A stretch of 32,924 nt of DNA. Origin: Elusimicrobiota bacterium. GTDB lineage: Bacteria; Elusimicrobiota; Elusimicrobia; Elusimicrobiales; UBA9959. Each line of letters starts with the position of its first letter. Position 1 is the stretch's first letter. Location of the stretch: assembly GCA_022703115.1 (NCBI GenBank), contig JAKLEK010000002.1, positions 1 to 32,924 of the forward strand, written 5' to 3'. The notes below the pieces were generated by a model that saw only the letters and a list, made by a program, of their open reading frames with translations, was not told where the DNA came from and did no database searches. The translations under genes and the position numbers were made by a program. Positions 12,898-21,271 of this stretch are shown here, piece by piece.

Positions 12898-13263
12898 TCA
12901 CCGTCCGTATTGCCGCACTTTTGCGAGGATCGGGCCTATGATCTCCGGCGGCAGGGCGGCGCCGGCGCGTTCCAGCTCGTCCCCGACCCCGGCGGCGTTG
13001 AAGGAGCCGTCGGTTACGAGGATGGGGGATGATTTGTGGAGGCCGGGCCGGTCCTCCCCCCCGTCTATCCCGTCGTGCCGGTAGCCTTTGTCCCGGAGCC
13101 AGGTAAGGGCGCGGGGCTTGGACTTCAGGTCGTAGCAGAGCTGGAAGCCGTACATTCCCCCGGAAGGATCGAACCACACAATAAGATCGAAGCGCTCGTC
13201 GCTGAACCATCTCCGCGGCGGATCGCCCGGTATCTGTCTTACGTCCTTCATTTCGCGAAGCAT
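12898..13263 (-). CDS. Hypothetical small protein (121 aa) coupled to the adenosyltransferase gene
   Basis: The ORF track frame is 12898-13497. I place the start at the ATG at 13261-13263 (MLREMKDVRQIPGDPPRRWFSDERFDLIVWFDPSGGMYGFQLCYD...), which has a GGAGAGG RBS 4 nt upstream. Its stop lies 2 nt before the downstream ATG. I did not recognise a family. Confidence 0.55.
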   Translation of the reverse strand: MLREMKDVRQIPGDPPRRWFSDERFDLIVWFDPSGGMYGFQLCYDLKSKPRALTWLRDKGYRHDGIDGGEDRPGLHKSSPILVTDGSFNAAGVGDELERAGAALPPEIIGPILAKVRQYGR

Positions 13264-13399
13264 GACCTCTCCCCCGCCCGGTTCGGCCGGTGCGGGTATA
13301 GTGTATTTTAATAGCGGCCGTCGCACAAGCCCCGCTCCCCCTTTGGTTCGCCGGGCTGCCAGAAGAAGGATAGAGAGTCCGCGGCCACCGGAGGGAGCC

Positions 13400-13590
13400 T
13401 TCTGTCTGCCGGGGTTCTGTCGACCCTCGGCTGGTAATCCCGGGTACGCTGGGCTGCCGGGGGACACAGGGGTCGAAGGGCACGCTATCGGCCACACCGT
13501 GGCCGCGCTCCCACTCGGCCTCGCCGCTTACGTAAGGCTCGGCCTGCGTGACGGCCCTTTGACCCCTGTGTCCCCCGTCAACCGCTCCAA
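13400..13590 (-). ncRNA. Candidate structured RNA, copy A' (inverted paralog of copies A and B; 3' boundary uncertain)
   Basis: On the minus strand it begins TTGGAGCGG (reverse complement of 13582-13590). A 23-bp helix pairs 13459-13481 with 13554-13576, with one G-T/A-C position. Then comes CCGTCACGCAGGCCGAGCCTTACGTAAGCGGCGAGGCC, which aligns with copy B (CCGTCACGGAGGCCCGAACTTGCGTAAGCGAGAGGGCC). A hairpin GGCCAC-GGT-GTGGCC sits at 13490-13504. The strand is assigned only by homology orientation, because the helices would form on either strand. Confidence 0.4.
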
Positions 13591-13638
13591 CGGAGTAGCA
13601 CTATATTCCGTTCTGCTCTAGTTAAGGATGTTCCTTAT

Positions 13639-13885
13639 TTGGAGCGGGAGGCAGGGGAACCGGAAAAGCGGAAGCGTCCGGAGGCCGAGGCTTACGTAAG
13701 CGACGAGGACCGGGTGGACTACGCTATCCTGTTGTGTGTTCGTGGACACAACTTGGAACGCAGGCGCGCGTACGGTGTACGCGACGCCGGTTCCGCGTTC
13801 CGGGCCCCTGACAGGCCCCGCGCACCCAATTCGCGGCTGACCGTTAAACTCCAGCCAGGACCCCGAACCCGGGGGGCGTCAGGGC
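13639..13885 (+). ncRNA. Candidate structured RNA, copy A
   Basis: Five nested Watson-Crick helices join the 5' and 3' parts: 13644-48/13817-21, 13652-57/13805-10, 13660-65/13798-803, 13668-73/13791-96 and 13678-81/13787-90. All five are mirrored by different but complementary sequences in copy B. The 43-nt core at 13711-13753 is 40/43 identical to B. The palindrome CTTACGTAAG is at 13691-13700. A strong promoter for the next gene lies downstream of the element, so it is not simply the nifU-like leader. Confidence 0.5.
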
Positions 13886-13929: not shown

Positions 13930-13938
13930 TGGTATAAT
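13930..13938 (+). promoter_or_regulatory. Extended -10 promoter element (TGgTATAAT) for the NifU-like gene
   Basis: A perfect TATAAT sits at 13933-13938, preceded by TG at 13930-13931. It lies 85 nt upstream of the ATG at 14023, in an otherwise GC-rich spacer. Confidence 0.5.
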
Positions 13939-14022: not shown

Positions 14023-14247
14023 ATGAAAGACAAAGTTCAGAAGACCATTGAAAAGATAAAGCCCATGCTCGAGGCGGACGGCGGGTCGGTAGAGCTGATA
14101 AGCGTCGACGAAAAGAGCGGGATCGTGAAAGTGCGCCTTACCGGCGCCTGCGGCTGCTGCCCGCACGCCACCATGACGCTTAAGAACGTCGTGGAACGCA
14201 TGATAAAGGAAGAAGTCCCCGAGGTCAAGGAAGTTACCGTCGGCTGA
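14023..14247 (+). CDS. NifU C-terminal-domain (Nfu-like) Fe-S cluster scaffold protein, 74 aa
   Basis: MKDKVQKTIEKIKPMLEADGGSVELISVDEKSGIVKVRLTGACGCCPHATMTLKNVVERMIKEEVPEV contains the CxxC motif of the NifU C-terminal domain. A GGAG RBS precedes the ATG at 14023. The longer 202-aa ORF in the track is rejected. Confidence 0.85.
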   Translation: MKDKVQKTIEKIKPMLEADGGSVELISVDEKSGIVKVRLTGACGCCPHATMTLKNVVERMIKEEVPEVKEVTVG

Positions 14248-20653: not shown

Positions 20654-20893
20654 TTATTTCTTTTTCTTGGTCTTGGCGTTGACCATCTTGGCGCGGCCGA
20701 TATCGCCGGCCTTGTCGAGATAATAGAGGTAGCCCGGCTCCTTCCTGACGCCGACCTTGGTCACCTTCTGGGGCTTTCCGCCCTTTTTCCCGCCGCGGGC
20801 CATCTTGGCGCGGGCGACGTCCCCGGCCTTGTCTATGTAATAGAGGAAACCGTCCTCTCTCTTTACGCCTACTTTCTGTACTTTTTCACCCAT
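20654..20893 (-). CDS. Small basic protein (79 aa) made of two tandem ~38-aa repeats
   Basis: KVQKVGVKREDGFLYYIDKAGDVARAKM is followed by KVTKVGVRKEPGYLYYLDKAGDIGRAKM and a KTKKKK tail. An AGGAGGA RBS lies 7 nt upstream of the ATG, and the gene has its own promoter and terminator. Confidence 0.7.
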   Translation of the reverse strand: MGEKVQKVGVKREDGFLYYIDKAGDVARAKMARGGKKGGKPQKVTKVGVRKEPGYLYYLDKAGDIGRAKMVNAKTKKKK

Positions 20894-20958: not shown

Positions 20959-20987
20959 TACCGGGCAAGAAGCAGAACGAGATATGG

Positions 20988-21271
20988 TTGGAGGGGAGGC
21001 CGGGGATTTGGCGGAGCAAACCGTCACGGAGGCCCGAACTTGCGTAAGCGAGAGGGCCGGGCGGACTACGCTATCCTGTCGTGTGTTCGTGGACGCAACT
21101 CGTGAGGGGGGGCTGGGCTATCGAAGGTTTGCTACGGACACTGTGCGAGGCCGTCTGAGGGCCATAGGCCTTGAAACGGCACTGGCATAGCCGAGACCCC
21201 GTGTTTGCGGAGCCAAACCCCGGACAGGCCCCCGAACCCTACGCGGAACTCTTGATGTCGCCCAGCCGGAC
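20988..21271 (+). ncRNA. Candidate structured RNA, copy B
   Basis: It begins TTGGAGGGG. The helices are 20993-96/21229-32, 21000-05/21218-23, 21007-12/21212-17, 21016-20/21204-08 and 21025-29/21199-203. The same AGG/ACAGG internal loop and the 4-nt bulge followed by AGGCC are present as in copy A. CTTGCGTAAG is at 21039-21048, and the core is at 21058-21100. A copy-specific inserted domain is closed by GGCTAT/ATAGCC (about 21115-21192). Confidence 0.5.

Follow-up and report, generated by a model that had tools for sequence, protein, structure and literature searches.

The window analysed here comprises 32,924 nt of an Elusimicrobiota genome (contig JAKLEK010000002.1, positions 1 to 32,924). 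It covers a housekeeping region of an Elusimicrobia genome; the ArgS encoded in it shares 80% identity with the ArgS of an Elusimicrobiaceae metagenome-assembled genome (MAG), and its short proteins have identical versions in anaerobic-digester and activated-sludge metagenomes. The element in question, A', lies inside a 758-nt divergent intergenic region with hyp121 on one side and a NifU-like gene on the other. A first-pass annotation had described it as an inverted copy of two further elements, A and B. In this study, we show that A' is a complete copy, in canonical form, of an uncatalogued element family specific to Elusimicrobia. The family folds into an outer helix (P1), an inner helix (P1b), and two arms (P2 and P3) at a three-way junction. 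Searches used R1, a covariance model built from 56 copies from other genomes without any window sequence. The features are as follows.

12898 to 13263, minus strand: hyp121, a hypothetical protein of 121 aa without a Pfam hit, followed by a gene for a PduO-type cobalamin adenosyltransferase.
13297-13311: -10-like box TATAGTGTATTTTAA between hyp121 and A', i.e. downstream of A', conserved in the closest relative (L018).
13377 to 13451, minus strand: 3' tail after A' (CAGCGTACCCGGGATTACCAGCCGAGGG...), 81% identical, inverted, to the start of contig L005.
13452 to 13583, minus strand: A', complete canonical element of 132 nt, a three-way-junction hairpin, supported by the R1 match, the minimum free energy (MFE) fold, and end-to-end alignment with 87 copies from other genomes.
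13452 to 13481, minus strand: 3' strand of P1b and P1 (GCCCTTCGACCCCTGTGTCCCCCGGCAGCC), from the repeat finder, R1, and a sequence check.
13482 to 13508, minus strand: P3 arm, GCGC-GGCCAC-GGT-GTGGCC-GATAGCGT, the hairpin proper at 13490-13504.
13509 to 13553, minus strand: P2 arm, CGTCACGC-AGGCC-GAG-CCTTACGTAAGCGG-CGA-GGCC-GAGTGGGA, an ACGU-capped hairpin with two tandem-GA internal loops.
13554 to 13583, minus strand: 5' strand of P1 and P1b (GGTTGACGGGGGACACAGGGGTCAAAGGGC), holding the A.G mismatch of the family (UGACG/CGGCA) together with the A.C position.
13582 to 13590, minus strand: 5' leader motif TTGGAGCGG, common to A (13639-13648), B (20988-20997), and about 30 copies elsewhere as GGAG[CG]GG or GGCGGAGACC.
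13584 to 13646: AT-richer spacer separating the 5' ends of A' and A, with -10-like TATAGT at 13600-13605 on the minus strand.
13647 to 13816, plus strand: A, same family, leader from 13639, with an extra domain between P2 and P3 (the 43-nt core of the first-pass annotation, about 13712-13760).
13930-13938: extended -10 TGGTATAAT of nifU, conserved, downstream of A.
14023 to 14247, plus strand: NifU-like gene, flanking A.
20987 to 21245, plus strand: B, same family, with P1, P1b, and P2 kept and P3 replaced by a domain of about 100 nt.

Of the 23 positions of segment 13459-13481 (GGGGGACACAGGGGTCGAAGGGC), 22 match the reverse complement of 13554-13576, in agreement with the near-perfect 23-bp helix of the first-pass annotation, and an independent repeat finder extended it to 30-nt arms (13452-13481/13554-13583) with 90% complementarity. 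The exception, G13475/T13560, had been correctly located and described as a G-T position. On the family's (minus) strand it is an A.C 1x1 mismatch, at the site of the relatives' internal loop between P1 and P1b, and it reads A.A in the 99.4%-identical strain L232; it is thus a position within a loop where mismatches are tolerated, rather than a wobble pair. The closing helix of about 20 bp carries the UGACG/CGGCA A.G mismatch, and GGTTGACGGGGG... pairs with ...CCCCCGGCAGCC. The interior aligns with A and B as had been claimed, including the bulged CTTACGTAAG hairpin: 13519-13548, in the P2 arm, is an inverted 90% copy of A 13679-13708, and over the first ~100 nt the minus strand of A' follows both copies (TTGGAG...GGGGA...AGGCC..CTTRCGTAAGCG..GAGG). 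The hairpin GGCCAC-GGT-GTGGCC was likewise found on the minus strand at 13490-13504, with the GGT triloop of the A hairpin (CGCGTAC-GGT-GTACGCG, 13767-13783). The family signatures of P2 (AGGCC-N3-5-CTTRCGTAAGCG-N1-3-GAGG) and P3 (ACGG(T/G)GT) are both present in A', as AGGCCGAGCCTTACGTAAGCGGCGAGG and CCACGGTGTGG. The common leader reported earlier starts all three window copies, which begin TTGGAG[CG]GG. The same A' subtype, GGGAGCGCGGCCACGGTGTGGCCGATAGCG, occurs in L090 and L094, and a close variant without TGTGG in L142.

The minus-strand fold of A' has an MFE of -96.6 kcal/mol (z = -6.0 against shuffles). R1 recovered A' on that strand at full length, a check that the first-pass annotation had proposed. 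The match covers 13453-13581 and model positions 1-130 of 130, with 93.2 bits and E 4.9e-21 (R1 E-values are rough, as the model was quickly calibrated). It is the best R1 match in the window, and the plus strand of the locus reached 16.9 bits only. The view of A' as a divergent third copy without the 43-nt core needs revision. The homology to A and B stands and the block is absent, but A' is the standard form, neither diverged nor truncated, and matches about 150 copies from other genomes end to end. The three modules distinguished earlier correspond to P1, P2, and P3. The 3' tail probably belongs to a longer repeated unit.

The extent of the family was determined by a search in 185,579 species genomes with a pattern taken from the block common to A, B, and A' (AGGCC N3-5 CTTRCGTAAGCG N1-3 GAGG), which gave at least 118 loci and is biased to the exact P2 signature. 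Copies were sampled on MAG contigs, so the counts are not whole-genome counts. Among the matches listed, all but one chance match (L141) came from Elusimicrobia MAGs or from unclassified bins (SKS/DBS) grouping with these MAGs; the relatives of the window's ArgS include two of the bins. Several copies occur per genome, up to 11 having been sampled among the matches listed. Unbiased sequence gave a density of about one copy per 100-200 kb, and the window holds three in 33 kb. Elusimicrobia genomes carry roughly ten or more copies each. In Rfam 15, no match reached the gathering threshold in the window, nothing matched A'/A at E<=10, and nothing credible matched the canonical pair. The literature on Elusimicrobia non-coding RNAs and repeats yielded nothing that matched.

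A typical copy is about 135 nt long (median 135 nt). P1, of about 20 bp, is nearly fixed in length and differs in sequence from copy to copy; it often contains the A.G mismatch (UGACG/CGGCA) and extends 1-4 bp past the model in most copies. Inside it follow an internal loop, the 7-bp P1b (GCAAAAC/GUUUUGC or GGAGGGC/GCCCGAC-type), and the three-way junction. P2 (NNUCNCGG-AGGCC-GAG-GCUUGCGUAAGC-GNC-GA-GGCC-GAG...), with its two tandem-GA internal loops, is the most conserved part, and its columns AGGCC..CTT.CGTAAGCG..GG were invariant in alignments of 88 and of 56 sequences. P3 (..GCGNNCAC-GGU-GUGNNCG-A-CGCC) has a bulged A and is nearly invariant as an arm (..CACGGUGUG..). Its ACGG.GT was invariant in the same two alignments, and its stem covaries between GC, CG, and AU. 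Optional hairpins or domains sit at fixed junction sites in A, B, L073, L124, L143, and L151. A subset of copies has a conserved single-stranded 3' tail (CCCCGACUNNGCAUCUCGCGG) together with a 5' GGAG start. Core identity was 0.76 within and 0.72 between genomes, and P1 identity was about 0.47-0.49 in both. That copies are barely more alike within genomes argues against recent copying bursts. The core hardly varies among species with an ArgS only 65-80% identical to that of the window.

Covariation was counted on 118 copies in an alignment that is fitted to the model. Paired cells amounted to 91.7%, compared to 69.5% in shuffles; both sides change in 41 of the 46 pairs, and all 17 P1 pairs covary. 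The covariation score was 0.453 against 0.122 in shuffles (none of 500 reached it), and it fell to 0.05-0.07 with partners slid by 1-3 columns. RNAalifold on a trimmed MAFFT alignment returned the same consensus, with which about 100 single-sequence MFE folds agreed. On a plain MAFFT alignment of long flanks it found the inner hairpins only, and trimming to the element was needed. Compensatory changes were also seen between orthologous copies (L130 versus L122, and 15 pheS-pheT copies). In 97 of 100 copies the element's own strand folded more stably than the complementary one, the mean difference being 11.8 kcal/mol. In P1, G.U outnumbered A.C on the own strand by 118:23 in the alignment and by 103:45 in folding. 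The bias held both where the flanking genes run along the element (29:10) and where they run against it (33:12). As it is independent of gene direction, selection acts on the element's own strand and not on a crossing mRNA. These results show that selection preserves the fold of that strand.

Next to A', A matched the full R1 model with its insertion at 56.6 bits (global, E 1e-10) and locally at 45.9 bits with a [43] insertion. B matched locally through P2 only (21024-21064, 29.3 bits, E 3e-5), and its MFE fold closes with GGGGAUUUGGC/GCCAAACCCC. An R1 scan of the window without filters found no copies beyond A', A, and B. A and B have in common a 49-nt block, 92% identical. The exact 43-nt block of A and B gave nothing among the 185k species genomes and, in metagenomes, occurred in this species only. 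Because of this restriction, the block that had been called the core is a local insertion between P2 and P3, found in this form only in this species. Its position is a known expansion point of the family, where L051, L124, L143, and L151 carry other optional hairpins. Two short words were noted in this context. The A' RNA GAUAGCGU (13483-13490) is complementary to ACGCUAUC in the insertion specific to A and B (13717-13724, 21064-21071), with about one such 8-mer match expected by chance. Related GAUAGC/GCUAUC words recur in the tails of L039, L076, and L090.

The head-to-head arrangement of A' and A, described earlier as about 50 nt apart, was borne out. Between the two TTGGAGCGG starts (13590 minus, 13639/13640 plus) the distance is 49 nt, and between the R1 matches it is 65 nt. 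Adjacent copies (<~150 nt) were head to head in 15 of 15 cases, A'/A included, with arbitrary orientation of the flanking genes, so the arrangement is a family rule and not a local accident. The spacers measure 8-112 nt, typically about 55 nt, and are AT-rich; five pairs have only 8-17 nt. Divergent promoters between 13590 and 13640 are possible, and the 8-17 nt spacers of other pairs are too short for two side by side. A promoter scan of 13584-13646 found no consensus sigma-70 site. The -10-like TATAGT of the spacer is replaced in strain L232 by TATACT, 6 nt closer to GGAG, and -10-like hexamers lie 6-7 nt before GGAG in L044, L056, and L123.

Strains and relatives differ at this site. The intergenic region between hyp121 and nifU is about 90-180 nt in the five relatives that keep both genes, with no element there, compared to 758 nt here. 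Since the site is empty in these relatives, the pair A' and A is a gain in this lineage. In our reading both arrived at the same time, between two divergent promoters that were already there. BLAST searches with A, B, and A' in the argS neighbourhoods of 16 relatives found no homologue. L232 (1-160, against window 13640-13800) remains collinear with it through A' and the spacer as far as TTGGAGCGGG and then has a different sequence in place of A. The difference reflects either one more paralogue with the common leader or a chimeric assembly at the repeat. Of the seven mismatches of L232, five cluster in the -10-like box of the spacer. In contig L005 (1-97, against window 13377-13473), whose strain shares about 96% identity in the nifU-proximal region, the copy by the nifU promoter has an A'-like 3' arm and tail (81%) in opposite orientation, which suggests that the pair was replaced or inverted between close strains. 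The species' metagenome contigs (L001-L017) repeatedly end inside or beside A, A', or B, so the family fragments short-read assemblies.

Two long open reading frames (ORFs) run through A', 13262-13621 (plus, 119 aa) and 12898-13497 (minus, a 199-aa extension). Neither had family hits, and the likeliest explanation for both is an artefact of the GC-rich hairpin. Beside B, a 79-aa basic protein (20656-20893, minus) without a Pfam hit is an internal tandem duplication of 93-nt repeats (20666-20758/20783-20875) with 72% identity.

Throughout the family, copies are intergenic. With gene calls from a crude GC3-based caller, their orientation relative to the neighbours was near random (-- 34, ++ 25, convergent (+-) 20, and divergent (-+) 11), and the downstream gene was co-oriented in 37 of 101 cases. 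About 30% of copies begin or end <=12 nt from a stop codon. The neighbours are ordinary housekeeping genes from 164 Pfam families. Among the families shared by at least two of 136 neighbouring proteins, no transposase, integrase, or reverse transcriptase was found, and no RAYT (Y1 HUH) either; whole genomes were not searched for RAYT. Matches resembling target-site duplications were no commoner than in re-paired flanks. There was no association with tRNA genes, and the element was absent from viral contigs. In L043 (7098-7611) and L096 (1276-1781), the 3' end of an RNase P RNA gene (RF00010, 186-193 bits) lies 8-10 nt from the element, co-oriented once and convergent once.

The same sites, pheS-pheT and a lysS-lolC-like one, are occupied in several genomes. 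Between pheS and pheT, the element is present in 15 of 44 Elusimicrobia genomes, in 13 antisense and in two sense to the operon. Arms and outer flanks are homologous across both orientations, so the element was inverted in place. Genomes without the element have a pheS-pheT spacer of 2-3 nt (TAATG) and no hairpin, and the inserted unit was thus the whole hairpin including its arms. For the same reason we rejected the idea that the core had dropped into a pre-existing terminator hairpin, although this would account for arms that differ between copies. Other, unrelated palindromic repeats occur at pheS-pheT about 85-93 nt after the pheS stop in L160, L185, L186, and L193, from genomes that lack the element, and the ancestral junction of 2-3 nt looks like a hot spot for hairpin-type insertions. 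At pheS-pheT in L165 (2248-2464, reverse), a diverged relative missed by R1 keeps parts resembling P1b and P3, and its P2 is replaced by a segment with CUGAUGAG. This is a hammerhead-like core word and may be there by chance.

As for function, the reading we favour makes an RNA of the element's own strand the working molecule, as a stable module that binds a conserved partner, and we give it about an even chance. The RNA would be made from a local promoter or by read-through; a conserved protein or RNA would dock at the invariant apical loops and the tandem-GA internal loops, with P1 needed only for closing the structure. RNA is favoured because of the tandem G.A loops, the conserved bulged A, and the optional hairpins and domains at fixed junction sites, and because the core is near-invariant across species. 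It is also favoured because a subset of copies combines the single-stranded 3' tail with the 5' GGAG, some with -10-like hexamers; because the hexamer upstream of A' is kept by turnover (TATAGT to TATACT in L232); and because GC skew reveals no replication-strand bias. Several observations weigh against it. About 100 copies aligned at their ends showed no promoter or terminator signal, and a -10 at a constant position was missing from 32 GGAG-type copies. Many copies lie 0-12 nt from a stop or start codon. Spacers of 8-17 nt mean that a shared promoter region cannot explain the pairs, and the antisense copies at pheS-pheT (13 of 15) would need an antisense or internal promoter for a forward RNA. 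The strand bias alone cannot separate RNA from single-stranded DNA (ssDNA), because G.T wobble is tolerated in ssDNA too. Also relevant to the choice between RNA and ssDNA is GCGAAGC, the sequence of an unusually stable DNA mini-hairpin; optional hairpins often contain it or CCGAAGG (L056, L077, L124, L143, L151, and L165). On the DNA side, the element would be REP/REPIN-like, a folded ssDNA recognised by a structure-specific enzyme (e.g. a HUH/RAYT-type transposase, recombinase, or primosome-like factor) that copies, inverts, or maintains it, with RNA effects incidental. We regard this as a serious alternative with a distinctly smaller probability, perhaps one chance among four. It better explains the in-place inversion, the inverted doublets in 15 of 15 cases even at 8-17 nt, the gains and losses from species to species, and the lack of a common promoter or terminator together with antisense copies inside operons. 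Intergenic, multi-copy occurrence in either orientation, presence or absence at orthologous nifU and pheS-pheT (15/44) sites, insertion of the whole element with its arms, a strand-specific fold independent of host transcription, and copies at contig ends that break assemblies also speak for it. However, there are no target-site duplications or conserved terminal repeats, copy-and-paste cannot explain the unique arms, and the shared neighbour families contain no transposase, integrase, or reverse transcriptase. Orientation is unrelated to GC skew (62:66), whereas lagging-strand ssDNA elements show a GC-skew-linked orientation bias. The identities within and between genomes (0.76 and 0.72) indicate no recent bursts, the core is near-invariant across species whereas REPs change with species, and A and B carry large modular insertions of a kind typical for RNAs. 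An element of the MITE type (miniature inverted-repeat transposable element) was rejected, as the arms are unique to each copy and target-site duplications do not exceed chance.

In a special case of the RNA reading, A' and A would each be an independent small-RNA gene, with divergent transcription starting at back-to-back promoters in 13584-13646 and with action in trans, e.g. as sponge, scaffold, or base-pairing regulator. The recurrence of the head-to-head arrangement, the typical AT-rich spacers of ~55 nt, the hexamers before GGAG in L044, L056, and L123, the TATAGT upstream of A' with TATACT in the sister strain, and the TTGGAG[CG]GG start of all three window copies fit this proposal, and B lies between two convergent genes and so cannot be a leader. 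The proposal is nevertheless rather unlikely in our view, given that the scan of 13584-13646 found no consensus promoter, five pairs have spacers of 8-17 nt, U-tract terminators are absent, and most single copies have no room for a promoter. Somewhat less probable still is a new functional RNA class, either a ribonucleoprotein (RNP) scaffold or ribozyme in which the invariant three-way-junction core is the active part, or one with the copy-specific helix of ~20 bp as payload (e.g. processed to small duplex RNAs). The genome would then keep ten or more individually addressed versions, 5'-to-5' when adjacent. A new self-cleaving ribozyme or other catalytic or processed RNA, with the invariant nucleotides of the junction and internal loops as active site or the 20-bp helix cut to small RNAs, seems very improbable. 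Like known small self-cleaving ribozymes, the family is multi-copy, has no consistent gene association, and combines near-invariant unpaired nucleotides with free covarying stems, and its outer helix is of near-constant length, but it resembles no Rfam ribozyme and nothing indicates cleavage. Guide-like arms were considered too, and the two P1 arms tested had no match in viral contigs (IMG/VR). Context statistics effectively refute a cis-acting leader or riboswitch of the operon of hyp121 and the PduO-type adenosyltransferase, or an intrinsic terminator or attenuator, to which we assign hardly any probability. A' does point toward the hyp121/Cob_adeno_trans genes, and its hairpin is long, stable, and GC-rich. 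However, orientation in the family is near random among neighbours from 164 unrelated Pfam families, and Rfam gave no match at E<=10, cobalamin riboswitches included; on context and Rfam results together, the cobalamin riboswitch or leader was rejected. The -10-like box conserved with L018 lies downstream of A', and since the promoter-like boxes 13297-13311 and 13930-13938 lie outside the pair, A' is not the leader of an adjacent gene. A run of T4+ within 25 nt downstream occurs in only 12 of 102 copies, about as often as on the other side, and none follows A'.

Elusimicrobia are almost entirely uncultured, and here one palindrome led to about 150 aligned copies with a well-supported secondary structure and clear boundaries. 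Under the RNA reading, an unknown and abundant RNP component would exist in this phylum; under the ssDNA reading, an unknown structure-specific DNA enzyme would. The family model should also be useful for annotation, given the broken assemblies and the spurious ORFs, since gene callers may mis-annotate such elements (e.g. the ORF 13262-13621).

In the family, two properties that usually occur separately come together, a REP-type genomic lifestyle and the conservation of a functional RNA, an invariant core with free covarying stems. REP, BIME, and REPIN repeats of proteobacteria are intergenic GC-rich hairpins of 20-40 nt with a conserved stem sequence, tied to RAYT, present in tens of copies in either orientation and often after stop codons. 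They form inverted doublets of fixed polarity, contain no ORF, and vary in presence between relatives. The present family is likewise dispersed and intergenic, in both orientations and with inverted doublets (15/15). Unlike REP/REPIN, it has an element of ~130 nt with a three-way junction, free stem sequence, and conserved apical arms, and a core conserved across a whole order or class. The first-pass annotation had considered a generic REP-type palindrome; the family is indeed dispersed, REP-like, and multi-copy, but no copy lacks the other modules. ERIC/IRU and Correia (NEMIS) elements are imperfect palindromes of ~100-150 nt in transcribed intergenic regions, in both orientations, that form long hairpins in mRNA. 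They are conserved over their whole length and have terminal inverted repeats, and Correia elements have target duplications. In contrast, our family has no target-site duplications, arms unique to each copy, and extensive covariation. Integron attC sites conserve structure over sequence, and one strand's fold is functional, marked by mismatches and extrahelical bases. The family resembles them in conserving structure and one strand's fold. However, attC sites have conserved ends with R/L boxes and a variable centre and stand in one orientation in cassette arrays beside an integrase, whereas here the centre is invariant, the ends vary, and copies are dispersed in both orientations. Orphan Rfam 'motif' RNAs, which come from comparative genomics, are similar in being clade-restricted, covariation-supported, modular three-way junctions with optional hairpins; the family differs from them in that its copies are unusually many, are not associated with particular genes, invert in place, and always pair head to head. 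It shows none of the features that define MITEs, attC sites, riboswitches, or intrinsic terminators. Its lifestyle resembles that of REP/BIME, ERIC, or Correia repeats, and its pattern of conservation that of an orphan structured RNA.

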